DNA of 64,000 bases from an uncultured Actinomycetota bacterium (GTDB lineage Bacteria; Actinomycetota; Actinomycetes; Streptosporangiales; Streptosporangiaceae), in assembly GCA_963783935.1 (NCBI GenBank), contig CAWAPP010000007.1, positions 1,201,823 through 1,265,822 of the forward strand, in the 5' to 3' direction. The translations under genes were made by a program, and so were the position numbers. Positions 5,016 to 24,075 of this stretch are shown piece by piece; the stretch's first letter is position 1; each line of letters begins with the position of its first letter. The notes under the pieces are model-generated. The model was given only the letters and a program-made list of their open reading frames with translations. It did no database searches and was not told where the DNA came from.

Positions 5016-5165
5016 ATGAACGAAAAGGTCATTATCAGAACAGACACCTCAGTGGCCCCAGTCCTGCTCACCCCGGCTCTGGTCGAGAAGATGCTCGCCA
5101 GCCGCGACGCCGTACAGGTCATGAAGTTCCGTACCACCTGCACGGACTGCGTGCCTAATTACTAA
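5016..5165 (+). CDS. small 49-aa ORF (MNEKVIIRTDTSVAPVLLTPALVEKMLASRDAVQVMKFRTTCTDCVPNY), possible precursor or accessory peptide
   Basis: ATG at 5016 is preceded by GGAAAGG 7 nt upstream; stop TAA at 5163-5165. Too short for the ORF track. Lower G+C than the flanks. First cistron after the candidate promoter and just upstream of the nucleotidyltransferase gene. Confidence 0.4.
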   Translation: MNEKVIIRTDTSVAPVLLTPALVEKMLASRDAVQVMKFRTTCTDCVPNY

Positions 5166-5254: not shown

Positions 5255-6436
5255 GTGATGGAGCTCAGCGGTGCGAACCTGGTCGAGGCGCTCGGCACGG
5301 CGTGCGGTGAGCAGGCCGAGGAACCCGCGGAGATCGTCGGGCTCGTGCGCCGGGCCGAGCCGGGGTTCGCGGCGACGCTGTTTTCTGCCTGGCAGGCTGA
5401 GGGCATCGCGCTCAACGCGGCCTTACGCGAGGACGTGGAGTCCGCGGCCAGCCGGGTCGGGTTTTATCGCTCGGTCGCGGCTGAGCTCACCAAACAGGTG
5501 GACAGCCTGACCACGATCAAGGGGCTCGAGGTCGCTGCTCTCTACCCGGCCGGCCTCGTCAGGTACATGAATGACCTGGATTTCATCACGCCGTCAGAAG
5601 ACGACCTGTGGCGGGCGGTCGGCTGGCTGACTGACGAAGGCTGGGAAACCGACACGGCGACGTTCTCGTTCCTTGAGGGCTCGCTCCGGGTCATGGTCAG
5701 CCTGCGCAAGCAGAACGAGGACAGATTCCGGCTGCCGTACGGCATCGAGCTGGCGACCTACTACACGCTCGGAGACCAGGGCGGCATACCGCCGATCATC
5801 GAGCTGCCGGCCAGATGGCAGGTCCCGGCGGTCAAGAACTCGATCATGCTGCTTCACGAGCGCTATGAACAACCCTTCCGCGCGCGTGACCTGGTGGACG
5901 CGGCTTTGCTGCACGAGTCGATGGGCGAGCCCGAGCGCCGCGCCCTGCGTGAGGCGGTGGCCGAGCTCAATCTCGCGGTCGAATACGCCGAACTGGTCCG
6001 GCTGGTCAATCAGGCCGGGCTCGCCGACCTGGCGCCGCTGCCAGGTGGCCGGTGGGTGACCGCGCGGACGAGGGCGGTCCGGCTGACCCGCGGAGCTGGC
6101 TTCTTCGCCAAGCCGGTGACCGGGACTGGCCGGCATCTGCAGCGCCGGCTGATGATGGCCAAGCCCGGCCGGGCCGAGAAGGCGGCGTGGGAGCTCGTGC
6201 AGCGGCGGCTGCACCCGGCCACGGCGATCCGGGGCGGGCTGCTTGGCTTCGGCCTGCCGCTCGGCGGCCCCCGTTCGGAGGTGGCCAGTGCTGTTCTCCG
6301 CCGTCGGGGCGACCTGGCCTGGGTCGACACCCCGGCTGGCCGGTTCCTGCTGACCGTTGGCGATTTCGTTTCCGAGGAAGCCGTCACGGAACTTAGCGAG
6401 GGGCAAGAACCTGAGCCGGTCGCGGAGGCCAGCTAA
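5255..6436 (+). CDS. nucleotidyltransferase-fold protein (NTP_transf_5 / uncharacterised nucleotidyltransferase family-like)
   Basis: Motif TTIKGLEVAALYPAGLVRYMNDLDFITPSEDDLWRAVGWLTDEGW matches the KG..la.lY...R...DlDllv...d...a...L...G signature of this family. SD AGGGAGGG precedes GTG 5255 / ATG 5258. Confidence 0.7.
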   Translation: MMELSGANLVEALGTACGEQAEEPAEIVGLVRRAEPGFAATLFSAWQAEGIALNAALREDVESAASRVGFYRSVAAELTKQVDSLTTIKGLEVAALYPAGLVRYMNDLDFITPSEDDLWRAVGWLTDEGWETDTATFSFLEGSLRVMVSLRKQNEDRFRLPYGIELATYYTLGDQGGIPPIIELPARWQVPAVKNSIMLLHERYEQPFRARDLVDAALLHESMGEPERRALREAVAELNLAVEYAELVRLVNQAGLADLAPLPGGRWVTARTRAVRLTRGAGFFAKPVTGTGRHLQRRLMMAKPGRAEKAAWELVQRRLHPATAIRGGLLGFGLPLGGPRSEVASAVLRRRGDLAWVDTPAGRFLLTVGDFVSEEAVTELSEGQEPEPVAEAS

Positions 6437-7704
6437 TGACGGAGATTACGGCCACGGCCGGGCGCGCCGCAACGGACGCCCTGGCCAACGGCGTGCGGTA
6501 CGCGGTGCTGCACCGGCCAGGTGCCCAGGTAACCACCGTCTCGGTCTGGGTGCTGGCCAGTTCCCGGCACGAGCCCGTTCCCGGAGTCGCTCACCTGCTT
6601 GAGCATGTCGTCATGCAGGCAGTGCCGGCCGGGCACAGCCAGCGGGTCGTCGATGAGATCGAGGCGTGGGGCGGCGACGTCAACGCGATGACGACCCGCG
6701 ACCATGTCGTGCTGCACGCGAAGGTACCCACCTCGGAAGCGGGTGCGGCCTTAGCGGTGCTCGCGGCCGCGGCGGCCACGGCGGAATTCGACGATGAACT
6801 GGTTGAGGCGGAACGGCGAGTCGTGCAGGAAGAACTAAGGCTTGCCGCCGCCGATCCCACCGACATCGTGCATGACGTGTTCTTCCAGGCCGCCTACGGC
6901 GATGACCAGATGGGCTGGCCGGTCGGCGGCACGGCCCCAGGCGTCGCCCGTCTCGGAACCGCTCACCTGCGCGAGTGGTCTCGCCGGTTCGTGCGGCCAG
7001 CGACAACAGCCGTGGTCGTGTGCGGCGGCCTGAGCAGGGAAGAGGTGGCCTGCCTGCTGGAGGACGGTCCGCTCGCCGGCCTGGTTCGGGACCCGCGAGG
7101 GCGGCCGCCAGACAGTTCGCCGCCGGTAACGGCCGGGCGCCGGGACCTGCCGATCGTCAGCGACACGGCTGCTGTGGTCATCGGCGGACAGGGCTTCGCC
7201 CTGAGCGACCGCGCGATCCTCGCGGCTGAGATCGTGCTCGAGCTGATAGCCGGCGGCAACGCGTCGGTGCTGAACGAGGAGATCAGGTCGAACCTGGGGC
7301 TGTCCTACGACATCTTCGGCGGGGTGAGCGGGTACCGGGAGACCGGCACCTGGCGGGTCGCGATCTCCACCGCCCCGGAAAACCGCGACGAGGTCGTCGG
7401 CCTCGCCACCGGGCTGATAGCCGATGCGGTCAGGCGGGGCTGGACGCCTGAGCAGGTCGGCGCGGCGCGGCGCCGGGTCGCCGGGCTGGCGCAGGTCAAT
7501 GCCGAGTCCTCGCTTGAGGAGGCGTTTCAGTTCGGCGATTACGCCTATGTGGGCGATTGCGCGGGCTTCTCGTTCCCCGGCTATCTCGGTCAGCTGGCCT
7601 CCGTCGAACCCGACGAGGTGGCCGCGGCCGCCGAGTTCATGACTAACCGCCTGGTGGTGGCGACGGCCGGACCGGACGGGTCGCAGGACTTCCCAGTCGA
7701 GTGA
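6436..7704 (+). CDS. M16 (pitrilysin/insulinase) family zinc peptidase
   Basis: Inverted zinc motif HxxEH in GVAHLLEHVVMQ. 422 aa, M16 N- plus C-domain size. The start overlaps the upstream stop (TAATG at 6434-6438). Confidence 0.85.
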   Translation: MTEITATAGRAATDALANGVRYAVLHRPGAQVTTVSVWVLASSRHEPVPGVAHLLEHVVMQAVPAGHSQRVVDEIEAWGGDVNAMTTRDHVVLHAKVPTSEAGAALAVLAAAAATAEFDDELVEAERRVVQEELRLAAADPTDIVHDVFFQAAYGDDQMGWPVGGTAPGVARLGTAHLREWSRRFVRPATTAVVVCGGLSREEVACLLEDGPLAGLVRDPRGRPPDSSPPVTAGRRDLPIVSDTAAVVIGGQGFALSDRAILAAEIVLELIAGGNASVLNEEIRSNLGLSYDIFGGVSGYRETGTWRVAISTAPENRDEVVGLATGLIADAVRRGWTPEQVGAARRRVAGLAQVNAESSLEEAFQFGDYAYVGDCAGFSFPGYLGQLASVEPDEVAAAAEFMTNRLVVATAGPDGSQDFPVE

Positions 7705-7727
7705 CAACCATGGAGAGGAGGTGCCAA

Positions 7728-7784
7728 TTGGACCGTCACATCAGATCCGCTCGCCGGCCGAAGATCAAGCCGATCAAGAAGTGA
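7728..7784 (+). CDS. micro-ORF 1: (M)DRHIRSARRPKIKPIKK, 18 aa
   Basis: TTG start 6 nt after GGAGAGGAGG (7712-7721); stop TGA. An in-frame ATG at 7710 would give a 24-aa form (MERRCQL...) but has no SD. Shares the RRPx[IV]KP[IV]KK core with micro-ORFs 2 and 3. Confidence 0.55.
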   Translation: MDRHIRSARRPKIKPIKK

Positions 7785-7795
7785 AGGAGTGACCA

Positions 7796-7852
7796 GTGAA
7801 CCGTCGTCTGTACGCCGCTCGCCGGCCCACCGTCAAGCCGGTCAAGAAGTAG
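7796..7852 (+). CDS. micro-ORF 2: MNRRLYAARRPTVKPVKK, 18 aa
   Basis: GTG start 6 nt after AAGGAG (7784-7789); stop TAG. Paralogous to micro-ORF 1, with synonymous codon differences in conserved residues. Confidence 0.55.
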   Translation: MNRRLYAARRPTVKPVKK

Positions 7853-7889
7853 CCGGCTGGTTCTCACGCCAACGAAGGAGGGAGGGGAC

Positions 7890-7940
7890 ATGGACCGTCG
7901 TCGAGCCTCATTGCGCCGTCCTGTCGTGAAGAAGAAGTAG
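7890..7940 (+). CDS. micro-ORF 3: MDRRRASLRRPVVKKK, 16 aa
   Basis: ATG start just after GAAGGAGGGAGGGG (7874-7887); stop TAG. Same M[DN]RR...RRPx[IV]K..KK pattern. Confidence 0.55.
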   Translation: MDRRRASLRRPVVKKK

Positions 7941-7965
7941 TGAGCCTTCCCTCACCACGTGAAGT

Positions 7966-8917
7966 GTGAGCAAGCCGGGGTGCGGCGCGCTGGACGGCGG
8001 CGCATCGTGCCCCGGCCGCGCCACCGGAAAGGCTTGGTCGTTGGAAAGTGTCGATCCTGATCGCACGATCTTCGCGCTGATCTGTCCCGATGCGCTGGCG
8101 AGGCATCTTGGCCGGGTAATCCTCGCGCGCGTCGGCGAGGCCGGCTTCGCGCCGGTGGCCTGGCGGGTGATCTGGCACCGCCCTGAGGATCTCGACTTCT
8201 TCCATGAGCGCAACATCAGCAGTGCCTGGCAGTCATATTTGTACCGCCTAGTCGACCAGTTGTTCGCCTTCGGCCCGGCGGTGGCCCTCCTGCTGGCCGA
8301 CCAGCGCCCGGGCATGGAAGGTCACAGCCGGCTGCGGCTAGCGAAAGGCCCAAGCGACCCCGCCCGCTCGGGACCGGGAACGATCAGGGGCGACCTCGGC
8401 TCGGTCAACGGCATGCTTTCGCTGCTCCATACCGCCGACTCCGCCGCCGACTCGGCCAGGGAAAGCGCCGTTTTCACTGGCCCGGACGGTTTTACTTCCG
8501 GCGACCAGGACGACCTGCTCAACGTGCTTGAACTGCTCGAGCTTCAGCCGGCCTCGCGAAATCCGCGACTACCCGGACGTGGTAGCCGGCCTGCGAGCCA
8601 AAGCTCTCGCGGCCGCCTGGCCAGACTTGCCAAGACCGGTCCGCAAGACCGCGAGCGAGCTTCTCAGGTCAGGAACGGCGGAACTGGCCGCGCCCGCGAG
8701 CGGCGAGCGGCTCGCCTGCCTGCTTGATCAGGACCATCCGCTCACCGGGATGCTCAGGGCCAGCTTCACCCCGGCGTCCGCCGGACCCGATCCGCAGCGG
8801 GTCGCCGTGACCCTGGCGGGATTCGGCACCGGCATCGACGAGTGGGAGCGCCTGGTGCTCGCCACGTCCCGCCGCTTCTGGCCGCGCCGGGTCATCCCTA
8901 CTAAAGGACCAGCTTGA
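7966..8917 (+). pseudogene. NDK-fold protein with C-terminal extension, paralogue of 16249..17190; apparent +1 frameshift near 8540-8565
   Basis: N-terminal part (ORF 7966..8727) shows an NDK-like pattern (DRTIFALICPDAL.., GTIRGDLGSVNGMLSLLHTADSAADSA with a retained His) and then turns into Arg-rich junk. ORF 8528..8917 in the next frame continues with text alignable to the C-terminal domain of the paralogue (GIDEWERLVLATS vs DWLPLWDRIVTAAH). Joined length ~317 aa versus 313 aa. The true start may be internal (TTG 8041 or GTG 8050). Confidence 0.6.
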
Positions 8918-8954: not shown

Positions 8955-10169
8955 GTGGCGTCAGTATTCTTCCGCACCAAGCTAGGCACCACCGAGGAAC
9001 TCGCGGCCGCACCTGGCCAGCCGCTGACGGACGTGCTCCTTCGCGCGGGCATTCCGGTGAACACGGTCCTGACCTGGCGTAACGGCACCATAGTGGCCGA
9101 GGAAACTACCGTCGTGCAAGCCGGCGACGTGATCGAGGTCCGCCAGGTCAGGCATTACGACCTGGACGTGCTCCGCCGGCCGAGGCGGCAGGTGTACGGC
9201 GTGCCTGACCCCGTATACGCCAAGACGGTGCTCTTCGACACGATGGGCTCGCTTGAGCGCAAGACCGAGCAGCTTGACGCGGCCGGTTTCGTGAAATACG
9301 TCGAGGAGACGTTCGTCCAGAGCGTGCTCTCTCATGACGTCATGCGGGCGGGGGACAAGGTAGTCGTCGGCCTGTCCGGCGGCCGGGACAGCGTCGCGTA
9401 CCTGACTTTGCTCGAGCGCACCAGGGAACGGCTGCCCGACCTCAACATGACGGCCGTCACTATTACGGGGCTGCCCGACTGGGAAGAGCCGGCCACGTTC
9501 GCCGCCGCCAGGGAATCCGGCGAGCGCCTCGGCATCGAGCAGGTGATCGTTACCTCGGCCGACGTCGAGCGGACGTTCAAGCTCAAAGGCCAGTTCGTAG
9601 ACGCCATGAACGAGGTCGTGGCCGGCGAGGGCAATCACCTGACCATGGTGATCGGCCATCAGGTGCTGCGCCGGATGCTCGAAGAGGAAGCCAGATCACG
9701 AGGGGCCGGGGTCGTGGCGTTCGGCTTCAACGCCGATGACCTGGTGGCTTCCATGGTGACGTGGTTCACGAGCGGCTTCCGCATGGGCGGCATCCCGGTG
9801 CGGGAGATCGGGGACCTTCGGTACGTGTTCCCGCTGTACCGGATCACCAAGAAGGAACTGACGCTGTACCTGGAGCTGGTCGCGCCCGAGCTGAACCGGC
9901 AGGGAACACCAGGCCGGTTCACGACCGGGCCCGATGAGCGATCGATGGCTTACGCCCTCACCGATCACCTCTTTGACTTGTGGCCGGGCATCGATTACTA
10001 CTTGTTCGCGGCGTTCGCCAACATGCAGCGTTACATGTTCCCGCTCATCGAGGTGTCCTGCCGGGGCTGCGGCGGTCTTTACCTGCTGCAAGAGGGCATT
10101 CCTAACGCGCCCGATCTGTGTGACGTGTGCGATTTCTTCGCCCGGCGCGAGCTGAGCACTATCAGCTGA
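8955..10169 (+). CDS. PP-loop (N-type) ATP pyrophosphatase, TilS/TtcA/TtuA-like, with N-terminal beta-grasp-like region and C-terminal CxxC..CxxC zinc ribbon
   Basis: SGGxDS PP-loop in VVVGLSGGRDSVAYL. Central GHQ/..NADDL.. block typical of the family. N-terminus resembles ThiS/MoaD (NGTIVAEETTVVQAGDVIEV). C-terminus CRGCGG...CDVCDFF. No Cys in the catalytic core. Confidence 0.85.
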   Translation: MASVFFRTKLGTTEELAAAPGQPLTDVLLRAGIPVNTVLTWRNGTIVAEETTVVQAGDVIEVRQVRHYDLDVLRRPRRQVYGVPDPVYAKTVLFDTMGSLERKTEQLDAAGFVKYVEETFVQSVLSHDVMRAGDKVVVGLSGGRDSVAYLTLLERTRERLPDLNMTAVTITGLPDWEEPATFAAARESGERLGIEQVIVTSADVERTFKLKGQFVDAMNEVVAGEGNHLTMVIGHQVLRRMLEEEARSRGAGVVAFGFNADDLVASMVTWFTSGFRMGGIPVREIGDLRYVFPLYRITKKELTLYLELVAPELNRQGTPGRFTTGPDERSMAYALTDHLFDLWPGIDYYLFAAFANMQRYMFPLIEVSCRGCGGLYLLQEGIPNAPDLCDVCDFFARRELSTIS

Positions 10170-11944
10170 TGCCCTGGTACGAGGACTATTTCACCGCCGA
10201 CTACTGGTCGTACGCGGACGCCGAGTACACGGCGGCGCGGACCCAGGCTGAGGTCGGGTACCTGGCCGAGGTGCTGAGGCAGCATGCGCCAGGTCGCCGG
10301 GTGCTTGACCTTGGCTGCGGCACCGGCAGGCACGCCGTCGGGCTCGCCCGGCTCGGGTTCGAGGTAACCGGTGTCGACGTGTCTGAGTACGCGCTCGGGC
10401 GAGCGCGCCTGGCAGCGGCCGAGGCGGGCGTAACGGTCCGCCTGCACCGGGCCGACGTGCTGGGGAACTGGACCTGCCCGCCTGCCGACGCGGTGGTTTG
10501 CGTGCAGGCCTTCGGCTGGGGGCAGGACGCCGACCAGCTCAGGCTGCTGCGCCGGATCAGGCGGCTGCTGGCCCCCGGCGGTCTGCTCGTGCTCGATCAT
10601 TCCAGCCTTCTCGCCATCACCAGGATGTACTCCGCGCACGCGGAGGCCAGCGTCGGCGCTTCGACGTTCACGTTCAGCCGGACCTTCGATCCGGTCAGCG
10701 GCCGGAGTGGTGGCGAGGTCCTGGTCGAGCGCCCGGACGGCAGCAGCGGCGTGCTGCCTGACAACGTGCGGCTTTACACCCCAGCCGAGATCGCCGGGCT
10801 GCTCGCGCGGGCGGGATTCGAGGTGATCAGGGCCGACGCGGACTTCGGCGCCGGTGAGCCGGTCACGCTGAGCACCAGGTACGTGCAGTTCCTGGCCACC
10901 CCGGCCGCCAGGGTGGAGCCTGCCCTCGCCGGGCATCGAGAGCCGGCCGGACCACGAGAAATCGACTTGCGCTGGGCGCCTGACGAAGCTGAGTTCACCC
11001 GCGCGGAAGTGGCGGCTGCCTGGGCGCGGACGAGCCTCGATCAGGCCAGGCGCTACGACCTGCGTGATCCGTACGGCGGCGGGCGGGCCGCACCGGTTCT
11101 TGGCCGGCACCTGGGCTGGCCGGCTGGCACGGCTCCCAGCCAGGACCGGGTCAGTGCCGGCGCGGGCGTCACTGGACTGCTGCACGGGCTGGCCAGGCTC
11201 GCCGACGGCGGCACCCTGCTGATGACGCCGGACGGGCATCCGCAGCTAGCCGAAGCGGCTTCCGCGGCCGGCGGCCGGGTCGCGGTCGCTGAGCTCGCCG
11301 ACCTGGCTAAGGCCGTCGTCGCTTCCCGGCCAGCGGTTACCGTACTCGACCGGCCAGGACTCACCGGCCCTTGCTGGCCGGCCAGCGGGATCGCCGACCT
11401 GGCGGCCCGCGGCGCCGAGCACGGCGGCGTGCTCGTCGTCGATGAGAGCTACGGCTGCTACCGGCCGGCCGACGACAGCGTGGCTCGGCTCACCGACAGC
11501 GTGGCCGGCCTCGTCGTGCTTCGCGGAGTGTCCAAAGGTTACTGCTGCGGCGGGCTGCGGATCGGGTTCGCTGTCGCCTCGGCGGAGGTCGCGGCCGAGG
11601 TGAGGGCGGTGCTGGCGCCGCTCGCCTTCGGCGCTCTCGCCTTCGACCTAGCCCTCGCGTTGCTTGACCGGCCCGATCCGTTCGGGCCGCTGCGGGCACG
11701 GGTGGCCGAGGTCAAGCCCGTGCTCGAGGCGGCGGTGCGCCGGGCAGGCGTCGAGGTGATCGGGAGCGACGAGCACGTGCCGTGGATCGTGCTGCCCGAC
11801 GACCCGGCGCCGCGGTCGGCGCTCGCCAAGTGGGGGCTCGTCGCGAAGCGCGTTCCGCTCGTCGGTCGGTCTGGCTGCCTGCTCCGGATGTCGGTCCCGT
11901 TGTCGCGAGAACGGGCGGACGCGGTGAGCGCGGCGCTGCGATGA
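10169..11944 (+). CDS. fusion protein: class I SAM-dependent methyltransferase domain + PLP-dependent class I/II aminotransferase-fold domain
   Basis: N-terminal motif I RVLDLGCGTGRHAVGLARLGFEVTGVDVS. C-terminal PLP-lysine block LRGVSKGYCCGGLRIGF, as in the HisC/CobD-like family. ATG at 10169 overlaps the upstream stop (TGATG). Confidence 0.85.
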   Translation: MPWYEDYFTADYWSYADAEYTAARTQAEVGYLAEVLRQHAPGRRVLDLGCGTGRHAVGLARLGFEVTGVDVSEYALGRARLAAAEAGVTVRLHRADVLGNWTCPPADAVVCVQAFGWGQDADQLRLLRRIRRLLAPGGLLVLDHSSLLAITRMYSAHAEASVGASTFTFSRTFDPVSGRSGGEVLVERPDGSSGVLPDNVRLYTPAEIAGLLARAGFEVIRADADFGAGEPVTLSTRYVQFLATPAARVEPALAGHREPAGPREIDLRWAPDEAEFTRAEVAAAWARTSLDQARRYDLRDPYGGGRAAPVLGRHLGWPAGTAPSQDRVSAGAGVTGLLHGLARLADGGTLLMTPDGHPQLAEAASAAGGRVAVAELADLAKAVVASRPAVTVLDRPGLTGPCWPASGIADLAARGAEHGGVLVVDESYGCYRPADDSVARLTDSVAGLVVLRGVSKGYCCGGLRIGFAVASAEVAAEVRAVLAPLAFGALAFDLALALLDRPDPFGPLRARVAEVKPVLEAAVRRAGVEVIGSDEHVPWIVLPDDPAPRSALAKWGLVAKRVPLVGRSGCLLRMSVPLSRERADAVSAALR

Positions 11945-13839
11945 TGCGGCTGGCGGAGGTCGTGGCGGCCGTGCACGACGAATTCGATCTGGGCCTGGCC
12001 CTGGCTGACCTGCGCGCGGTCTGCGAGTACGACCGCTACCAGGCGTCGGCCGGGATTACCGCCGCCGCCGAGTACGTGGCCGAGCGGGCGAGGTGCGCCG
12101 GGCTGGCCGACGTCAAGGTGCTGACGTTCCCGGCCGACGGCGGGCGGCGGTGGTGGACCTATCGCGCGCCGGTGTCCTGGACGCCGCTGCGAGCCAGGCT
12201 CGCGGTCGGCGGCGACGTTCTGGTCAGCTACCCCGAGCAGCCGTACACGCTGGCGGCCTATTCGGCGCCGGTCGGGCCGGGCGGACGGTCGTTGCCGCTG
12301 GTCCGCTGGACCGCCGTGCGACAAGGCGCCGACTCGCGCGGCTCCCTGGTCGTCGCCGACGAACCGGTCGCGCTTGGCTCGGTCGCTCACTCGCTGGCGG
12401 GAGCTGGCGCCGTGGCCGTGGCCGCCGATCCCCTCGGCCGGTCACCACAGCGGGGGGCCGGCCAGGTTGGCCGGATCGAGTTGCCCGCCGGGTGCGGGCT
12501 GGCGGCCTTCAGCGTGACCGCCGGGGTGCTGGCCCGGCTCGCGGCCGAGGCTGACCGGGGTGGCGCGGCTCAGGTTGAGGTCGTGCTCGATGCCAGCGTC
12601 GCGGCGATGCCGGTTGTGACCGGGCGGCTGCGTGGTGACGCCGAAAAGGAAATCCTGCTCAGCGCTCATCTGTGTCATCCAAGACCCAGTGCCAACGACA
12701 ACGCGTCTGGTGTCGCCGCGCTGCTCGGGATCGCACGGGTGCTGGCCAGAGCGCCCGCCGGTCGCGCCCGCCCGGCCATCAGGTTCCTGTGGGGACCGGA
12801 GTTCACCGGCATCGCCGCCTACCTGCATGAGCAGGTCGGCACCGGCAAAGCTTCCGCGCCTTCGTTCGCGATCAATGTGGACATGGCCGGCCAGGATGTG
12901 GCCAGGTGCGGTGGCCCGCTGGTCATCGAGCGCGGGCCCGATGACATCCCCTCGTTCCTGCCCGCCCTCGCCTCCCGCTGTGCCGAACTGCTGCCGCCCG
13001 CCTCCCGCTCCTACAGCGGTGCGGTCGGGTGCGACCCGTGGACCTGGCGCGAGACGCCGTTCGCGGGCGGCGCCGATCACGCCCTGCTGGCCGACTCGCC
13101 GGCCAGGTGCCAGGTCGTCGGGCTCGGCCACTGGCCGGACCGCGCCAATCACAGCTCAGCCGACACCCCGAACCTGGTTGATCCGCAGGAGCTCCGGCGG
13201 ACAGCGACCATCGCTGGTGCGGCAGCGGCCGCGATCAGCGCCAGCGCTGGCGGCAATTTGGCGGATGATCTTGAGGAAGTAACCGTGAGCTGGGCGGCGA
13301 GGCACGTGCTGGCGACGTTGCCCGGCAGCCGGCCTTGGTCAGGTCGAAGACCTCAGCAGCTGCTCGATCCGCACGACGAGGCGGAAGCGGGACGGTGGCT
13401 CAGGCATCGGGCCGCGGTCGCGCTGGGCGCGATCAGGGCGCTGCCGGCCGCCGGGGTCGATGACGCCAGGGTGCGCGCCGCCCAGGCCTGGATCGGGCCA
13501 GTCATCACCGCTACCGCGGAACGGCTGCCGCCTGCGGCCGGGGCTGCTGCCGGCGCCGAGCCGCTGATCAGGTGCTGGGCCGGTCCGGCGAACTTGCGCG
13601 CGCTCGCCGAGGACGCCGCGCCCTTGGACAGGGACTGGCTAAATGAGGCCCTCGCCGTCGACCGGGGCGGCAACTACGCCCGCGCGCTGGCGCTGATGCG
13701 CGGCGTCAATGGCGAGCGCGATCAGGCCGAGGTCGCCTGGTGGGCGGCGCTGAGCAGTGAGCTTGCCATTCCGGTGGCGTTCGCGGAGACGTTCGTTGCC
13801 TTGCTTGTCCGGGCCGGATGGGTGCGAGGAGATCAGTAA
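11941..13839 (+). CDS. M28-like aminopeptidase-fold protein (DUF4910-type) with C-terminal winged-helix-like tail
   Basis: Signature LSAHLCHPRPSANDNASGVAALLGIARVL. Start chosen at ATG 11941 (MMRLAEV..), overlapping the upstream stop as ATGA. The upstream part of listed ORF 11782.. overlaps the previous gene. Confidence 0.8.
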   Translation: MMRLAEVVAAVHDEFDLGLALADLRAVCEYDRYQASAGITAAAEYVAERARCAGLADVKVLTFPADGGRRWWTYRAPVSWTPLRARLAVGGDVLVSYPEQPYTLAAYSAPVGPGGRSLPLVRWTAVRQGADSRGSLVVADEPVALGSVAHSLAGAGAVAVAADPLGRSPQRGAGQVGRIELPAGCGLAAFSVTAGVLARLAAEADRGGAAQVEVVLDASVAAMPVVTGRLRGDAEKEILLSAHLCHPRPSANDNASGVAALLGIARVLARAPAGRARPAIRFLWGPEFTGIAAYLHEQVGTGKASAPSFAINVDMAGQDVARCGGPLVIERGPDDIPSFLPALASRCAELLPPASRSYSGAVGCDPWTWRETPFAGGADHALLADSPARCQVVGLGHWPDRANHSSADTPNLVDPQELRRTATIAGAAAAAISASAGGNLADDLEEVTVSWAARHVLATLPGSRPWSGRRPQQLLDPHDEAEAGRWLRHRAAVALGAIRALPAAGVDDARVRAAQAWIGPVITATAERLPPAAGAAAGAEPLIRCWAGPANLRALAEDAAPLDRDWLNEALAVDRGGNYARALALMRGVNGERDQAEVAWWAALSSELAIPVAFAETFVALLVRAGWVRGDQ

Positions 13840-15104
13840 TGAAGATGATCGTGCTTGCCGATCGCAACCTGCGAGTGCTGTTCGCCGGGCAGACGATGAA
13901 CATGATCGGCAACACCGCCATGACCATTGTTCTTGGCATCTGGGTGAAGGACCTGACCGGATCGAGTGGTGACGCCGGCCTGATCTTCTTGCTCCTGGCG
14001 GCGGCGGCGTTTCTGGCGCCGGTGACCGGCCTCATTGTCGATCGCTTCCCGCGCCGCAGCCTGCTGGTGGTCAACGACTCCATTACTGGCCTGGCCGTCG
14101 GGTTGCTCCTGCTAGTGCACCATAGGGATCAGGTGTGGCTGATCTACGTGGTGGCGGCCGTGTACGGCGTTTCCGGGCTGATCTACCGGTCCGCTCGGGG
14201 CGGGCTGCTGCACTCGATGGTGCCCGACCAGCAGCTTGGTGAGGTCAACGGCCTGTTCAGCAGCCTGTCCCAGGGGATGAGGATCGTCGGGCCGCTCGCC
14301 GGCGCCGGGATCTACGCGGCCTGGGGCGGCGGCGTGGTAGCCGTCGCTGACATGGCTACTTTCGCGGTTTCGATCGCGTCCTACCTGGCTCTTCGTCAGT
14401 TCCGTGACCTGAAGCGAGCCGACCAGGAGCGGCTTGGCCGCACGCCGCGCGAGTTCGCGGCCGAGCTGACGGCCGGGGTGCGGCATTTGTTCGGTAACGA
14501 CGTGATCCGGCGGATGGTCATCGCCAGCACGATCGGCTTCGCCGGGGCCGGCATGATCGACGTGGCCATGTTCTCGCTGGTCGATCAGGGTCTTGGGCGC
14601 CCTACCTCCTGGATCGGGGTGCTGGCGAGCGTTCAGGGCGCTGGCAGCGTGCTGGCGGGCTTTATCGTCGGCCCCTACATGCGCCGCTTCGGTGAGTACA
14701 GCGCGGCCTGCGTGGGGTTTCTGCTGAACGGCGTCGGCCTGGCGGCGGCGAGCACGTCGGTGCTGCCCGGTGCGCTGTGCGGCTCGGCGCTGATCGGGAT
14801 CGGGCTGCCCATGGTCTTGGTCGCCGAGTTGACTGTGCTCCAGCGCCGTACTCCGGCCGACTTGCAGGGGCGGGCGATCGCGGCCTCGGAGGCGATTATC
14901 AATACCCCGTTCTCGATCGCGATCGCGGTCGGCGCGGGTGTGATCGCGACCGTCGGGTTCCGGCCGATCTACATCGGGGTGGCCGCCGGCTTCACCGTCG
15001 TCGGCCTGGCCCTGCTGCCCTACCTGAAGGTCACTAAGCCGGAGGACGCCAAGCCGGCCGACGTAGCGGACGAAGTCGCGGTGGTCGGGCAGGCGCCTGA
15101 ATGA
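13839..15104 (+). CDS. MFS transporter (EntS/efflux-like)
   Basis: About 12 hydrophobic segments. N-terminus MKMIVLADRNLRVLFAGQTMNMIGNTAM is typical of the MFS_3/EntS type. Start overlaps the upstream stop (TAATG at 13837-13841). Confidence 0.85.
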   Translation: MKMIVLADRNLRVLFAGQTMNMIGNTAMTIVLGIWVKDLTGSSGDAGLIFLLLAAAAFLAPVTGLIVDRFPRRSLLVVNDSITGLAVGLLLLVHHRDQVWLIYVVAAVYGVSGLIYRSARGGLLHSMVPDQQLGEVNGLFSSLSQGMRIVGPLAGAGIYAAWGGGVVAVADMATFAVSIASYLALRQFRDLKRADQERLGRTPREFAAELTAGVRHLFGNDVIRRMVIASTIGFAGAGMIDVAMFSLVDQGLGRPTSWIGVLASVQGAGSVLAGFIVGPYMRRFGEYSAACVGFLLNGVGLAAASTSVLPGALCGSALIGIGLPMVLVAELTVLQRRTPADLQGRAIAASEAIINTPFSIAIAVGAGVIATVGFRPIYIGVAAGFTVVGLALLPYLKVTKPEDAKPADVADEVAVVGQAPE

Positions 15105-16252
15105 GAGTGTCGGCTGACGAGTTGCTTGATCAGGTCCGGGGGCCGGTGCTCGGCCTGTGCCGGCGGCATCCTGAGCACAACCTGACCGTGATCGCGCGAG
15201 CGATTACTGACAGCTATCATGGCCTGGGGCCGGTTTGGCTCGGCCCTGCCCGCAGCCTGGTCGTGCTTGCCGTGGACGGGCTCGGGTACGAGGCTGCTGC
15301 TTCGGCGTTTCCCGCGGCCGAGCTCTGGCCGCTGACCAGCGAGTTTCCGACCACGACGGTGGCTTGCCTGATGACGTCGGTGACCGGCGTGCCGGCCGGC
15401 GAACACGGGTTCACCGGCGTCCAGTACCTGCACGCCGACGGGCACCGCGTCGTCAACTGTCACAGCGGCCAGGTCACCGGCTGGTCTGACGCCATTGCCC
15501 GGCCGACGGCCACGCCCGAATTTCCGACCGTGTTCGACCGGCTTGACGCGGTCGGCGTGCGGTCGGTCGCTCTGCCGCGTGAGCTTGCTGGTCTTCATGG
15601 AGATGTCACGAACCGGATGCTGCACGGCGCGCGGCTCAGCCCGGACGCGGCGGCCGTCCGGTCCGCTGCCCCCGCTGACCCGGTCGGTCTGGTGGAGGCC
15701 TTCGCCGGCGGGCTCGTGATCGAACCGGGCACGCTGACCTGGGCCTACCTTGATTTCGACAGCTACCTGCATCGGCACGGCTTCGATCACCGCATCCACG
15801 TAGCGGCTCGGGCTCTTGGCGACCTTGCTCAGCGGCTGCGTGATAGTGGCGTCTCGGTGCTGATCTTCAGCGATCACGGCCTGACCGCCAGTGCGCCCGC
15901 TCCTGGCACCTTGGAGACGTGGGATGCGGTTGCCGTTGAGCGCTGGTGCCGGCTGCCTCCTGGCGGGGCTGGGCGGGTCAGGTGGCTGTATCCGCATCCG
16001 GGTCTGGCCGGGGAGCTCGCCGATCGGCTAGCCGGGCAGCTCGGCGACGCCTTCGTGACTTCGCCTGACGAACTCGCCGACCTTGGCCTGGTCGCGGCCG
16101 GATCCGTCGGGCAGCGCCGGCTCGGCGAGGTCGTGCTCGTGGCCACCGGACCTGATTTCCCTGTGCCCGATCCTGGTACTTCCTACGAGCACGGCTCCAT
16201 GACCGCGGCTGAGGTGCTGGTGGCAATGGCGATCTGGTCGGCGGGGCCGTGA
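15101..16252 (+). CDS. alkaline-phosphatase superfamily protein (type I phosphodiesterase / nucleotide pyrophosphatase-like)
   Basis: LAVDGLGYEA .. SEFPTTTVACLMTSVTGVPAGEHG matches the metal-site/nucleophile Thr region of the family. ATGA overlap with the MFS stop. Confidence 0.75.
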   Translation: MRVSADELLDQVRGPVLGLCRRHPEHNLTVIARAITDSYHGLGPVWLGPARSLVVLAVDGLGYEAAASAFPAAELWPLTSEFPTTTVACLMTSVTGVPAGEHGFTGVQYLHADGHRVVNCHSGQVTGWSDAIARPTATPEFPTVFDRLDAVGVRSVALPRELAGLHGDVTNRMLHGARLSPDAAAVRSAAPADPVGLVEAFAGGLVIEPGTLTWAYLDFDSYLHRHGFDHRIHVAARALGDLAQRLRDSGVSVLIFSDHGLTASAPAPGTLETWDAVAVERWCRLPPGGAGRVRWLYPHPGLAGELADRLAGQLGDAFVTSPDELADLGLVAAGSVGQRRLGEVVLVATGPDFPVPDPGTSYEHGSMTAAEVLVAMAIWSAGP

Positions 16253-17190
16253 TCGGCGAGTCGGTGGCCGCTGTCGAGATCGAGCCTTGGGTCATTCCTG
16301 ATCAGCGCAAACTTGCGACTTACGCCGACGATCCTTACTTCTGGGAAGGCTGGGCCTCGTTCGCGCGGGCTTGCGGGGGTCAGCCAAGCGCTCGCGCCTT
16401 TGAGCGGATGACCTTTCTGATGATCAAGCCGGAGGCGATCGCCGGGCGCCGGATCGAGCTGATACTTGATTTCCTTGCTTCGCGCGGATTCTTGATCACC
16501 GGTGCCTGGCCGGTTCGGATGAGCAGGCACGCCGTCAGGGCACTCTGGCGTTATCAGATCAACGTCGTGCCGGTGGCGCACTTGCGGGCGCTTGAGCTTG
16601 GGGTTACCTCCGATGAGCTTTTCGTCGTCGGGCTGATCCACCTTGAGCCTTGGGACGGGGCGGGCAGCGCGGCCGAACTGCTGCGCTTGTGCAAGGGGAG
16701 TTCGTCGGCCCCGGCCGGCGATTCGCTGCGGGACGTGCTGGGTGGTCAGGCTCGGATGCTCAGTTTCGTGCACGCGCCGGACGAGTCGGCGGACGTGATC
16801 CGTGAACTGCCCATCTTGTGCGAGCCAGGGCAGCTCGGTCAGGTTCTGGCCAGCCTGGTGCCCTCGGCCGCATCGGCGCCCGGTCGGTCCGAGGCTGAAG
16901 CTCGGCTGGCCATGACCGCTAGGTATCAGCAAGTGCCCGAGCACGACCTCGACGTTCGCGCGACCTTCCAACGAATGCTGGCCGCGTCCGGTGGCTTGCC
17001 CCAGGTTGCGCGGGCGGCGATCCGCGCTGGGCGTACCACCTCCGAGCAGGCACTTGAGGTAGTGGCTGCGCTCGAGGTGGCCGACTGGCTGCCGTTGTGG
17101 GACCGGATCGTGACCGCTGCTCACCTCACCGATGGTCTTCGTAACGGCCGCGCGATGCTGCTGCCGCCATGTCCCCGTCCTGCCAGTTAG
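16249..17190 (+). CDS. NDK-fold protein with ~130-aa C-terminal extension
   Basis: ERMTFLMIKPEAIAGRRIELILDFLASRGF and RDVLGGQARMLSFVHAPDES mimic the NDK blocks (lIKPDav.., N..HgSDs) and keep the His. GTGA overlap with the upstream stop. Last gene of the + strand operon. Confidence 0.7.
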   Translation: MIGESVAAVEIEPWVIPDQRKLATYADDPYFWEGWASFARACGGQPSARAFERMTFLMIKPEAIAGRRIELILDFLASRGFLITGAWPVRMSRHAVRALWRYQINVVPVAHLRALELGVTSDELFVVGLIHLEPWDGAGSAAELLRLCKGSSSAPAGDSLRDVLGGQARMLSFVHAPDESADVIRELPILCEPGQLGQVLASLVPSAASAPGRSEAEARLAMTARYQQVPEHDLDVRATFQRMLAASGGLPQVARAAIRAGRTTSEQALEVVAALEVADWLPLWDRIVTAAHLTDGLRNGRAMLLPPCPRPAS

Positions 17191-17792: not shown

Positions 17793-18818
17793 CTAAGGCG
17801 TCCCGATGAACGCCATCAATTCGACCGGGGTCAGCCGGAACCTCAGCTTGGTGGCGGCGTTTCCCCGGCCGCCCTCGAGCACCGCCCGCCCGGCCGCTGT
17901 CGCCTCCTCCACGGCTGGCATCAGCATCAGCGGGAACGCGCTGCGGGCACCGGCCATTACCGAATAGTCGATCCCGCCGGCCCACAAGTGAAACCTGGTC
18001 GCGTCCCTGAGGCTGATGCTCGCCAGCCCAAGTTGCCCGTCTAGCCAGATCTCCGTCACGCTGATCAACCCGGCCGCGATCGCCACGAACTGACCGAACT
18101 CATCCGGATAATAAGCGGCAGTGCCGTGGCGCGCGGTCGTCCGCTGACAGAGTCCAACGGCGTCGGGCACGCCCGTCGCCGGGTCAGGACGCACGTACCG
18201 CATTCCGATCCGGTCCGCCTGGCGGCGGCCCTGCCGGATAAGAGCCCTGGCTTTCTGGCTGGGAATCGCCGCGATGAAGTCTTCTGACGAGCTGAAGCCG
18301 CGCAGGTCCTTGTTGTACCGGGTGTTCATGGGAATCTTCGTCAGCCCAACCTCGGCCAGTGCCGCCGAAAGCTGGGAATCGCCATCTACGTTCAGGAACG
18401 CGAACCACTTCACGCCTGCCTGGCGGGCTAGGTCGGCGAGGACCAGGCAAGCCCGTTCCACCAGGTGTGTCGTGAGATGCCCAGGCCGGGTCGGCAGCGC
18501 GGTGTCGTAGCAGTGCGCGACGTGGGTGATCAGGATCAGGTCACCTGGTTCTTTGCCGGGCAGGCCGAGCCCGGAAAGTATTCCAAGGGGATCGTCGCTG
18601 CTCTGCAGGTAAGCGGGCAGCACCGCGACGGCCGGGTCGCCGAATCGCAGGTAGAAGAAGTTCTCGGTTACCTGTAAGGGCGCTTGCTCGTAGGCGCGGA
18701 GGAAAACGTAGTCATAGAAGGCCGGCGCCCCGGCCGCCTCGGTCACAGCCGACCACTCTGCCCGGCCAATCCCGTCAATGGCGTGACCGACCAAGACGGG
18801 TCCGGCGTTCTTACTCAC
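17793..18818 (-). CDS. GNAT-fold / FemAB-like acyltransferase (Acetyltransf_6 or DUF482-like)
   Basis: 341 aa with clean composition. The N-terminal FYDYVFLRAYEQAP..FYLRF..AVAVLPAYL and C-terminal GGIDY..LEGGRGNAATKLRF pattern resembles FemAB-like/BioF2-like GNAT proteins. Assigned from memory only. Confidence 0.5.
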   Translation of the reverse strand: MSKNAGPVLVGHAIDGIGRAEWSAVTEAAGAPAFYDYVFLRAYEQAPLQVTENFFYLRFGDPAVAVLPAYLQSSDDPLGILSGLGLPGKEPGDLILITHVAHCYDTALPTRPGHLTTHLVERACLVLADLARQAGVKWFAFLNVDGDSQLSAALAEVGLTKIPMNTRYNKDLRGFSSSEDFIAAIPSQKARALIRQGRRQADRIGMRYVRPDPATGVPDAVGLCQRTTARHGTAAYYPDEFGQFVAIAAGLISVTEIWLDGQLGLASISLRDATRFHLWAGGIDYSVMAGARSAFPLMLMPAVEEATAAGRAVLEGGRGNAATKLRFRLTPVELMAFIGTP

Positions 18819-18868: not shown

Positions 18869-19477
18869 TTAAAAGTCAAGCAGGTTAGCGGGGTCGAGGG
18901 AGACCGTAAACGGCTTGTCCGAGTCAATCTCAGCTTCAAGCCTGCCGCCTTCCACGACTGCCGGGGCGGCTGTATACGTTCCGTCTGTCAGGATGAGGAC
19001 CTGGACAGATAGCCGGGGCGTGTGCTCGATGATCCAGTACTGCGGAATGCCGAGGGCGGCGTATTCTCCGACCTTGCGCAACCGGTCTGTGCGCTCGCTA
19101 CCGCTCCCCGGTGAGATGACCTCCGCCACCATGAGCAGGTCAGAACCGGGGATGAGCTTCGGCGACTCCTCGATGATCGCCGCGCGGGCAGTCTCCCTTG
19201 GAACTACGAACACGTCCGGCTTGCGCACACCCACCGGAGTGCTGATTTCCCACTCGCCGCCATCACACACGATGACCGGTGAGTCCGCGTCAGCGGCGGC
19301 TTGCTCGATGATCCGGGCCAGGGTCCGCAGCGCCCAGTTATGCCGTGAGCTTGCCGCCACTTCAGTCAGCCACCCGTCTTCGAGTTCGAATCCCTTGCCG
19401 TCCTCCGGTAGTTCGTGCAGGTCGAGGATGGTGTACGGCCCGAATTGGGTGCCATGCACCGAAGTTCGCGCTCGCAT
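18869..19477 (-). CDS. Uma2 family (DUF820) PD-(D/E)xK endonuclease-like protein
   Basis: RKPDVFVV .. VAEVISPGS..RTDRLRKVGEYAALGIPQYWII matches the Uma2 D..EV.S..K..Y...GI..YW core. Confidence 0.8.
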   Translation of the reverse strand: MRARTSVHGTQFGPYTILDLHELPEDGKGFELEDGWLTEVAASSRHNWALRTLARIIEQAAADADSPVIVCDGGEWEISTPVGVRKPDVFVVPRETARAAIIEESPKLIPGSDLLMVAEVISPGSGSERTDRLRKVGEYAALGIPQYWIIEHTPRLSVQVLILTDGTYTAAPAVVEGGRLEAEIDSDKPFTVSLDPANLLDF

Positions 19478-23955: not shown

Positions 23956-24059
23956 GCTGTTTTCCTTTCCGGCCGTCTCCTGCGGTCCGAGGTCCGGCCG
24001 CTTCGTTACCCTGAGGCTCCGCTCGCGTGACCTGCGAGATCGAGGTCTGCGCGAGTCCT

Positions 24060-24075
24060 GACTGAACATTCAGTC
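24060..24075. promoter_or_regulatory. 16-bp palindromic operator GACTGAA-CA-TTCAGTC (site 1)
   Basis: In the divergent intergenic region between the oxidoreductase (ATG 23955) and TetR (ATG 24121) genes. An identical 16-mer (reverse complement) recurs at 41791-41806. Confidence 0.6.

Follow-up and report, generated by a model that had tools for sequence, protein, structure and literature searches.

Fosfazinomycin is assembled in its late stages on the scaffold peptide FzmZ (Cha et al., bioRxiv 2026, PMC13622209), a ribosomal peptide of 21/22 amino acids which RODEO missed. The pathway employs an asparagine-synthetase-like enzyme of the PP-loop superfamily with a fused RRE, a methyltransferase, two kinases that build a triphosphate-like donor, a nucleotidyltransferase (NTase) that ligates this donor to the peptide, an aminopeptidase, and a tRNA-dependent ligase. 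In microcin C-type peptide-nucleotide antibiotics a very short ribosomal peptide (MccA), with a C-terminal Asn, is the substrate of the ThiF/E1-like adenylyltransferase MccB. Tandem, non-identical short ORFs with strong Shine-Dalgarno (SD) sites, followed by a stem-loop, are found as multi-copy RiPP precursor genes, for example lanthipeptide lanA arrays, whereas Erm-type and Cat-type leader peptides are ORFs of 8-20 codons that act in translational attenuation. Here we describe three 16-18-codon genes for very basic peptides in a 64-kb stretch of DNA (hereafter the window), which lie in an actinobacterial biosynthetic operon downstream of an uncharacterized PF14907 (NTP_transf_5) nucleotidyltransferase gene. 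The features of the locus are as follows.

5016-5165 (+), second conserved small gene (49 aa), MNEKVIIRTDTSVAPVLLTPALVEKMLASRDAVQVMKFRTTCTDCVPNY, a candidate precursor or partner of the PP-loop enzyme
5255-6436 (+), PF14907 (NTP_transf_5) nucleotidyltransferase
6436-7704 (+), M16 (pitrilysin/PqqF-like) peptidase
7712-7721 (+), SD site of micro-ORF 1, GGAGAGGAGG
7728-7784 (+), micro-ORF 1, MDRHIRSARRPKIKPIKK, TTG start and TGA stop
7784-7789 (+), SD site of micro-ORF 2, AAGGAG, overlapping the last base of the ORF1 stop codon
7796-7852 (+), micro-ORF 2, MNRRLYAARRPTVKPVKK, GTG start and TAG stop
7874-7887 (+), SD site of micro-ORF 3, GAAGGAGGGAGGGG
7890-7940 (+), micro-ORF 3, MDRRRASLRRPVVKKK, ATG start and TAG stop
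7974-8016 (+), GC-rich RNA stem-loop, GCCGGGGTGCGG...TCGTGCCCCGGC
8041-8917 (+), NDK-like kinase with a helical C-terminal domain of about 150 aa, interrupted by a 1-nt insertion near 8542
8955-10169 (+), PP-loop ATPase (SGGRDS motif), distantly NcsA/TtuA-like
10127-11944 (+), SAM methyltransferase fused to a PLP aminotransferase/decarboxylase-like domain (MT/AT)
11782-13839 (+), M28/DUF4910 aminopeptidase-like protein, the true start of which is probably later than 11782
13818-15104 (+), MFS exporter
15101-16252 (+), alkaline-phosphatase-superfamily phosphodiesterase/nucleotide pyrophosphatase
16249-17190 (+), second, more divergent NDK-like protein
17793-18818 (-), FemAB_like/Acetyltransf_6 (GNAT) protein

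The SD sites lie 6, 6, and 2 nt before the starts of micro-ORFs 1, 2, and 3, respectively. The initial annotation, which proposed three SD-led paralogous micro-ORFs under selection at the peptide level, is confirmed on this point, and the synonymous codon differences that it listed (Pro CCG/CCC/CCT, Arg CGG/CGT) are correct. Three details require correction: the net charge of the peptides is +7 rather than +8; two of the three stop codons, said to differ, are the same (TAG); and the NDK-like gene more likely starts at TTG 8041, the N-terminus shared with its homologues, so that the gap is about 336 nt rather than 262. The whole window, on both strands, holds only 18 SD-led ORFs of 12-26 aa, and the only three with K+R >= 0.38 are exactly these three. 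Thirty first-order Markov simulations gave a mean of 0.4 such ORFs, and none with the motif M[DNE]R-x5-R[RK]P.

A comparative survey yielded 28 arrays containing 61 peptides of 12-24 residues (1-5 per array) from Streptosporangiaceae, Pseudonocardiaceae, Micromonospora/Solwaraspora, Lentzea/Nocardia and, distantly, Streptomyces plasmids. The peptides share the consensus M-[ND]-R-[HS]-x-x-[SA]-[AS]-R-R-P-[RK]-[VI]-K-K-K, with Pro at position 11 in 49 of 59 distinct peptides. Orthologous loci (numbered L001 onward) keep both the micro-ORFs and their SD sites; GGAGG-type sites precede all 35 micro-ORFs of the initial catalogue, although later scans required an SD as a filter. The orthologue of micro-ORF 1 in L001 is MDRHLVSARRPKVKPIKK, and between the window and L001 indels fall only in the spacers. 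R3, R9, R10, and P11 are invariant in 29 aligned ORFs. Their codons have zero or low entropy at positions 1-2 and 1.1-1.7 bits at position 3, the variation being confined to the third base save that R10 switches between CGN and AGR. Pooled Nei-Gojobori dN/dS is 0.20 in frame, whereas pN/pS is 1.5 and 2.0 in the other two frames. These data show that the micro-ORFs are coding, and that selection acts on the peptide rather than on a DNA repeat.

The constant partner of the arrays is the upstream PF14907 nucleotidyltransferase, a point missed in the initial annotation; the M16 peptidase (present in about half of the loci), the PP-loop enzyme, and the NDK-like gene are each dispensable in some loci. 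All 27 genes of this NTase clade examined are followed by 1-5 micro-ORFs, and a further, distantly related array on a Streptomyces plasmid brings the total to 28. Locus L008 has three NTase genes, each with its own array, one of which is followed by an MFS gene and one by nothing. L108 and L109 have the NTase plus peptides without any NDK-like gene, and L110 has five copies followed by the MT/AT gene. Conversely, NDK-like homologues without the NTase (L006, L017-19) have no micro-ORFs. Whole-locus motif scans on both strands hit only at the arrays, with one false positive in about 300 kb. The distant Streptomyces version places SD, micro-ORF, and hairpin at the head of an M16-hyp-PF14907-ABC operon, with an NDK-like gene and a class II (Asp/Lys/Asn-type) aaRS paralogue alongside.

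The NTase was identified by Pfam (E 2e-8), and its 152 homologues are all annotated as hypothetical. A PDB sequence search gave nothing, and its AlphaFold2 model (pLDDT 86.8) shows only weak Foldseek matches (best E 0.011) to the Pol-beta-type NTases Cid1, Pol lambda, and 4ok0. G89 and D106-x-D108 are invariant, and the protein is acidic, with a net charge of -5 to -14 in most members. The NDK-like protein has 112 homologues of about 290 aa; its model (pLDDT 90.7) has an N-terminal NDK fold (TM about 0.8), and the catalytic His is invariant, although the copy in the window carries the frameshift. A metagenome scan with the NDK-like alignment matched housekeeping ndk genes. The PP-loop protein is 77-95% identical across families; it lacks central Cys residues, and therefore a role as an FeS tRNA-thiolase-type thioamide or thio-nucleotide synthase is not supported. 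The MFS exporter is present next to nearly all arrays. Up to three Fem-like GNAT genes occur per locus, and none was detected in a few, mostly truncated, loci.

The stem-loop after micro-ORF 3 lies in a 108-nt region that folds at -54.5 kcal/mol, and its stem is conserved against L001. It has no U-tract, and is probably an attenuating or mRNA-stabilizing hairpin. A strong hairpin follows the last micro-ORF in 19 of 21 loci folded; in L015 and L016 the gap is only about 11 nt. Many hairpins share GGCCGGGGTGCG...CATCG[TC]GCCCCGGCC, with G-U pairs that work only on the + strand RNA, while other clades keep a hairpin with a different sequence. No Rfam match was found at E <= 1 in 7400-8300.

The initial annotation also overlooked the 49-aa gene which opens the operon. 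It is called as a gene in related contigs and is present, with an invariant C-terminus KFRTTCTDC[VL]PNY, in most long-type loci. The family comprises 52 protein clusters, all annotated hypothetical, and tracks the PP-loop gene; in L110 a 54-aa paralogue sits next to a PP-loop paralogue. Neither this protein nor the micro-ORF peptides gave Pfam or NCBIfam hits, even at E <= 10. The seven micro-ORF forms of 20 aa or more are absent from a 15-billion-protein collection, and literature searches on RiPPs with nucleoside diphosphate kinases, on PF14907, and on the peptide motifs revealed nothing that describes this system.

On balance, and with moderate confidence, we favor the view that the micro-ORFs are real, translated genes of an undescribed family, and that their products are most likely the ribosomally made substrates (precursor or scaffold peptides) of the PF14907 enzyme. 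The initial annotation's suggestion of RiPP precursor or scaffold peptides is the best-supported reading, but it remains an inference, no modification having been observed. We surmise that the array is translated at a high level, the hairpin limiting read-through or stabilizing the peptide mRNA; that the acidic transferase binds the basic peptide through the fixed N-terminal and RRP-[RK]-[VI] motif; and that it moves a nucleotidyl, or a related phosphoryl-linked, group onto the peptide from a triphosphate-type donor supplied or regenerated by the NDK-like kinases. A Lys or Arg nitrogen, or the C-terminus, would be the likeliest acceptor, because no Ser, Thr, Tyr, or Cys is conserved. Fem-like GNATs (possibly aminoacyl-tRNA dependent), a P450 (short-type loci), or methyltransferase/PLP enzymes (long-type loci) would tailor the product, which the M16 and M28 peptidases would trim and the MFS pump export. 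Every step of this scheme is inferred. Conservation runs over the whole peptide with no evident leader/core boundary, and no RRE/PqqD domain was detected by Pfam in any cluster protein, though this is a weak negative since Pfam can miss divergent RREs. The C-terminal residue is not strictly conserved (K 50, R 8, S 2, P 1), which weakens any model built on the C-terminal amino acid, such as strict FzmZ or pearlin logic. Short-type loci, moreover, lack a dedicated peptidase.

Other roles for the peptides appear less likely. They could be a small protein partner of the NTase rather than its substrate: an activator, an inhibitor or antitoxin-like regulator, a specificity factor, or an adaptor tethering the enzyme to a polyanionic substrate such as tRNA or a nucleotide polymer. 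The linkage is strict and sometimes translationally coupled (in L108 the micro-ORF start overlaps the NTase stop), the charges are opposite, other cluster enzymes have tRNA-related ancestry (the NcsA/TtuA-like PP-loop protein, the Fem-like GNATs, and the aaRS paralogue), and NTase toxins regulated by a partner protein exist (MenT/MenA). However, one to five divergent tandem copies are typical of substrates rather than subunits, the setting is consistently biosynthetic, with MFS or ABC exporters, P450, peptidases, and NRPS or ATP-grasp neighbors, and none of the nine cluster proteins scanned with PADLOC matched a defense-system model, apart from methyltransferase-domain matches of the MT/AT fusion. 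We consider this reading unlikely. Somewhat less probable still is that the 49-aa peptide is the only modified precursor, the micro-ORF peptides being used unmodified as cationic antimicrobial or nucleic-acid-binding peptides, or as counter-ions or carriers for an anionic product. The 49-aa gene does look like a classical precursor, with a variable N-terminus, a conserved recognition stretch, and an invariant Cys/Thr-rich C-terminus, and the micro-ORF peptides have no conserved classical PTM residue; yet the micro-ORFs and the NTase persist where the 49-aa gene is degenerate (L007) or absent (L009, L010, L107-L109), and the tight conservation of M-[ND]-R and RRP at fixed spacing argues for recognition by a specific protein.

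A role as regulatory leader peptides, with ribosome stalling or translational coupling controlling the downstream gene through the hairpin, is very doubtful as a general explanation. The distance from Met to RRP is fixed, R-P-K/R may resemble the +x+ arrest motif of macrolide-dependent stalling, and in the window and L001 a segment right after the ORF3 stop (GCCTTCC) can pair with the NDK SD region (GGAAAGGC). This SD-sequestering outer stem is, however, predicted only in these two closest relatives (z-scores -1.8 to -3.3), the N-terminus is as conserved as the putative arrest site, copy number ranges from 1 to 5, and linkage is to the upstream NTase. The downstream gene is variously NDK-like, MFS, or MT/AT, and three arrays (the L008 minus-strand array, L108, and L109) have no co-directional downstream gene at all. 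Although ORF1 and ORF2 share nucleotide stretches (GCTCGCCGGCC), as expected of a tandem duplication, a chance or non-coding repeat is refuted by the frame-specific purifying selection and the simulations, and conservation of start, stop, and SD sites across at least four actinobacterial families also argues against it.

A more speculative possibility, which we regard as improbable though not excluded, is that the transferase and micro-ORF pair define a new class of ribosomal peptide natural products, in which a Pol-beta-type nucleotidyltransferase fed by NDK-like kinases forges a phosphoramidate-type (N-P) link between a nucleotide or nucleotide-like group and a Lys or Arg nitrogen, or the C-terminus, of the polycationic peptide. 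The product would be a peptide-nucleotide "Trojan horse," functionally like microcin C but made by unrelated chemistry, and might target a class II aminoacyl-tRNA synthetase such as LysRS; in long-type clusters it would be combined with a second peptide-derived unit made from the 49-aa KFRTTCTDCVPNY precursor by the PP-loop enzyme.

If the peptides are substrates, they represent a candidate new RiPP-like class whose hallmark enzyme, PF14907, has no known function and whose precursors are too short for gene callers and RiPP-mining tools. A simple search rule (SD, then M-[ND]-R-x5-R-R-P-[RK]-[VI]-K-K, then a hairpin, downstream of PF14907) recovers the family across Streptosporangiaceae, Pseudonocardiaceae, Micromonosporaceae, and Streptomyces. 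Cultured carriers include Solwaraspora sp. WMMB335, Micromonospora sp. LOL_021, Lentzea sp. NPDC042327, Nocardia sp. NRRL S-836, and Streptomyces NBC strains, and genetics and metabolomics are therefore feasible.

By comparison with the described systems, the arrays share with Erm-type and Cat-type leader peptides an SD site of their own, a following RNA secondary structure, and a basic-x-basic motif at a fixed distance from the start, but are linked to the upstream enzyme, can number up to five copies, and in some cases end their operon. With lanA-type arrays they share tandem non-identical ORFs with strong SD sites inside an enzyme, protease, and exporter operon, followed by a hairpin, but the peptides are far shorter, with no leader/core split, no Cys/Ser/Thr-rich core, no known RiPP class-defining enzyme, and no RRE detected. 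Daptides are not indicated, since the MT/AT fusion scores 59.5 bits against the daptide methyltransferase model, whose cut-off is 175, and no peptide ends in Thr. The resemblance to microcin C lies in the very short peptide gene, nucleotide-transfer chemistry (inferred here) in the same operon, an MFS exporter, and processing by peptidases (also inferred); the aaRS paralogue of the distant Streptomyces version would be expected for immunity to an aminoacyl-adenylate mimic, although this is our inference. No ThiF domain occurs in the cluster, no peptide ends in Asn, the peptides are polycationic and 2-3 times longer, and the transferase is of the Pol-beta type.

Fosfazinomycin offers the closest analogous logic. 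Both clusters contain a very short ribosomal peptide with a basic C-terminus which standard precursor finders miss, a nucleotidyltransferase, two kinases, a PP-loop-superfamily ATPase, a SAM methyltransferase, an aminopeptidase, an aminoacyl-tRNA-type transferase, and an MFS pump; what the PF14907 enzyme shares with FzmU is the superfamily (Pol-beta-type NTase). The peptides described here lack the YxxP motif and end mostly, but not invariably, in Lys. The PP-loop enzyme is nearest to NcsA/TtuA, matching asparagine synthase only at E 0.03, and appears to pair with the 49-aa peptide; the kinases are NDK-fold rather than ATP-grasp, and no PEP mutase was found among the cluster ORFs scanned, nor do hydrazine genes occur in the cluster. 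The case also supports the recent lesson from fosfazinomycin, that very short scaffold peptides hide in clusters that look like small-molecule pathways.

Inspection of the sequence at 7710-7940 bears out the initial annotation, in which three tandem Shine-Dalgarno (SD)-led micro-ORFs were said to encode Lys/Arg-rich peptides, and the flanking genes are likewise as stated there. Each ORF has a GGAGG-type SD site 2-6 nt before its start codon. The principal features of this part of the window are as follows:

5016-5165 (+), a conserved 49-aa gene at the head of the operon
5255-6436, the NTP_transf_5 (PF14907) gene (NTase)
6436-7704, the M16 peptidase gene
7728-7784, micro-ORF 1, starting with TTG and encoding MDRHIRSARRPKIKPIKK
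7796-7852, micro-ORF 2, starting with GTG and encoding MNRRLYAARRPTVKPVKK
7890-7940, micro-ORF 3, starting with ATG and encoding MDRRRASLRRPVVKKK
7974-8016, a GC-rich hairpin
8041-8917 (+), the NDK-like gene
8955-10169 (+), the PP-loop gene

These are followed by a methyltransferase/aminotransferase fusion (MT/AT), M28/DUF4910, MFS, phosphodiesterase (PDE), and a second NDK-like gene. The cluster appears to end near 18.8 kb, where the next genes (18869-19477 (-) and 20192-24069 (-)) are a Uma2-family endonuclease, an acetyl-CoA-synthetase-like ATP-grasp protein, and an amine oxidase, none of which is conserved in the related loci. On both strands, the whole window contains only 18 SD-led ORFs of 12-26 codons, and the only three with K+R >= 0.38 are the ones described here. 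Thirty Markov-chain simulations gave a mean of 0.4 such ORFs and never the motif. A search against Rfam found nothing in this region.

The NDK-like protein has 112 homologues, and 19 genome loci were retrieved with it. Every locus that also carries the NTP_transf_5 gene has 1-3 SD-led micro-ORFs of the same type in the same place, whereas the four that have only an NDK-like gene (loci L006 and L017-L019) have none. Loci reached independently through the 49-aa protein and through NTase homologues all carry them too. The catalogue now holds 28 arrays and 61 peptides, 59 of them distinct, with 1-5 copies per array and lengths of 12-24 aa; the consensus is M-[ND]-R-[HS]-x-x-[SA]-[AS]-R-R-P-[RK]-[VI]-K-K-K, and Pro is at position 11 in 49 of the 59 distinct peptides. 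In 29 aligned ORFs, the codons of the invariant R3, R9, and P11 never vary at positions 1-2 and carry 1.1-1.7 bits of entropy at position 3, while the near-invariant R10 (28 of 29) is encoded by both CGN and AGR codons. Pooled Nei-Gojobori dN/dS over orthologous pairs is 0.20 in the proposed frame; the same DNA read in the other two frames gives pN/pS of 1.5 and 2.0. Between the window and its closest relative, locus L001, indels fall only in the spacers. This settles that the ORFs are protein-coding and under purifying selection.

Synteny reveals two types of operon. The long type consists of the 49-aa gene, NTase, (M16), micro-ORFs, NDK-like, Fem-like GNAT(s), PP-loop, MT/AT, M28, MFS, PDE, and the second NDK-like gene (NDK2), whereas the short type consists of NTase, micro-ORFs, NDK-like, Fem-like, MFS, P450, and two further Fem-like genes. 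In one locus, L107 (1-6921), two NRPS genes (C-A-T and C-A-T-TE) lie directly upstream of a short-type NTase and micro-ORF cluster, which may represent a hybrid or merely an adjacent cluster. Four loci proved decisive as to linkage. L008 has three NTase genes, each followed by its own micro-ORF array; one array is followed by a hairpin and an MFS gene, and one, on the minus strand, ends its operon. L108 and L109 have the NTase plus peptides (MSPIVLKPRTNKKK; MCPVATRPKTNKKK and MCPPARRPKTNKKK) with no NDK-like gene and no co-directional downstream gene. L110 has five tightly packed copies (9426-9823) followed directly by the MT/AT gene; three of these are separated by only 2 nt, and the last codons of one ORF (AAG GTG AGG AGG AAG TAG, within ...KVRRK*) serve as the SD site of the next. 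So the constant partner is the PF14907 transferase, and all 27 genes of this clade examined have an array. Motif scans of whole loci on both strands hit only at the arrays, with one false positive.

A distant version of the system lies on Streptomyces NBC plasmids, as in locus L111 (Streptomyces sp. NBC_00211 plasmid NZ_CP108119.1, 3720-9990). Here an SD site, the 22-aa MNRNHAVSMRPRLDKVNVRTGK (Pro again at position 11), and a hairpin open an operon of M16, a hypothetical protein, PF14907 (29% identity), and ABC-transporter genes. A divergent NDK-like gene and a class II (Asp/Lys/Asn-type) aaRS paralogue sit alongside, with a pentapeptide-repeat protein nearby. The aaRS paralogue hints at an aaRS-directed product.

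A strong GC-rich stem-loop follows the last micro-ORF in 19 of 21 loci folded; in L015 and L016 the gap is only about 11 nt. Many of the hairpins share GGCCGGGGTGCG...CATCG[TC]GCCCCGGCC, and these stems contain G-U pairs that work only for + strand RNA, whereas other clades keep a hairpin with a different sequence. The hairpin of the window lacks a U-tract. We infer that it is an attenuating or stabilizing element of the kind that follows precursor genes in RiPP operons. In addition, the segment GAGCCTTCC right after the ORF3 stop (7941-7952) can pair with GGAAAGGCTT (8028-8037), which covers the SD site of the NDK-like gene. This pairing is conserved in L001 but not evident in more distant loci, and could reflect translational coupling.

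The NTase family has 152 homologues, all annotated as hypothetical. Its AlphaFold2 model (pLDDT 86.8) showed weak Foldseek matches to Pol-beta-type nucleotidyltransferases, namely Cid1, Pol lambda, and H. pylori 4ok0. Residues G89 and D106-x-D108 are invariant, and the protein is acidic in most members, against a charge of +7 for the peptides. The NDK-like protein has an NDK fold (TM about 0.8) with the catalytic His retained, and carries an unmatched helical domain of about 150 aa. Its homologues are single ORFs of about 290 aa, but in the window the gene is split across two reading frames near 8542 by a 1-nt insertion relative to L001, which could indicate a real pseudogene or an assembly error. 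The PP-loop protein possesses the SGGRDS motif and is nearest to the NcsA/TtuA tRNA thiolases, yet it has no central Cys residues, only a C-terminal CxxC...CxxC. By eye, its N-terminal 70 aa or so look like a ThiS/beta-grasp domain. It is 77-95% identical between loci whose other proteins are only 36-82% identical, which suggests unusually strong constraint. The Fem-like proteins hit FemAB_like/Acetyltransf_6. None of the nine cluster proteins scanned matched a defence-system model, apart from the methyltransferase domain of the MT/AT fusion.

The 49-aa gene just upstream of the NTase was revealed by gene calls in related contigs. Its C-terminus, KFRTTCTDC[VL]PNY, is invariant, a stretch APVLLTPxLVEKMLxxRxAVQV is conserved, and the N-terminus is variable. 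The family has 52 protein clusters, all annotated as hypothetical, and has no Pfam or NCBIfam model. The gene is degenerate in L007 and absent in L009 and L010, which are short-type loci that lack the PP-loop gene but keep the micro-ORFs. A second mini-cluster on the minus strand of L110 (1816-5283) holds a 54-aa paralogue of this peptide next to a PP-loop paralogue of 57% identity, together with a distant PF14907 gene (28% identity); a thymidylate kinase gene lies on the opposite strand between the last two. This arrangement recalls the pairing of a kinase with PF14907 noted next to PEP mutase in a phosphonate survey. We therefore assign two modules, one comprising the 49-aa peptide, a candidate second precursor, with the PP-loop enzyme, and the other the micro-ORFs with the NTase.

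The explanation we favor, with moderate confidence, is that the micro-ORF peptides are ribosomal substrates, either precursors or scaffolds, of the NTase. In this model, in which all of the chemistry is inferred, the NDK-like kinases would supply a triphosphate-type donor; Fem-like, P450, or MT/AT enzymes would tailor the product; peptidases would trim it; and the MFS pump would export it. It remains possible, though we consider it unlikely, that the peptides are a non-substrate partner of the NTase, and it is somewhat more doubtful still that they are unmodified cationic peptides, with the 49-aa peptide as the only true precursor. A role as regulatory leader peptides is very improbable, being contradicted by arrays that end their operon and by the variable downstream gene, and chance can be all but dismissed.

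Among the models, papers, and database entries searched, none covers these peptides, which we regard as a candidate new RiPP-like class with unusually short polycationic precursors and an uncharacterized hallmark enzyme. The closest published logic is the late assembly of fosfazinomycin on the 21/22-aa scaffold peptide FzmZ (PMC13622209). The present system fails the defining features of that family, having no YxxP motif and, among the cluster proteins scanned, no asparagine-synthetase-like enzyme with an RRE and no PepM. In its proposed logic it works like the fosfazinomycin system but is not a member of it.
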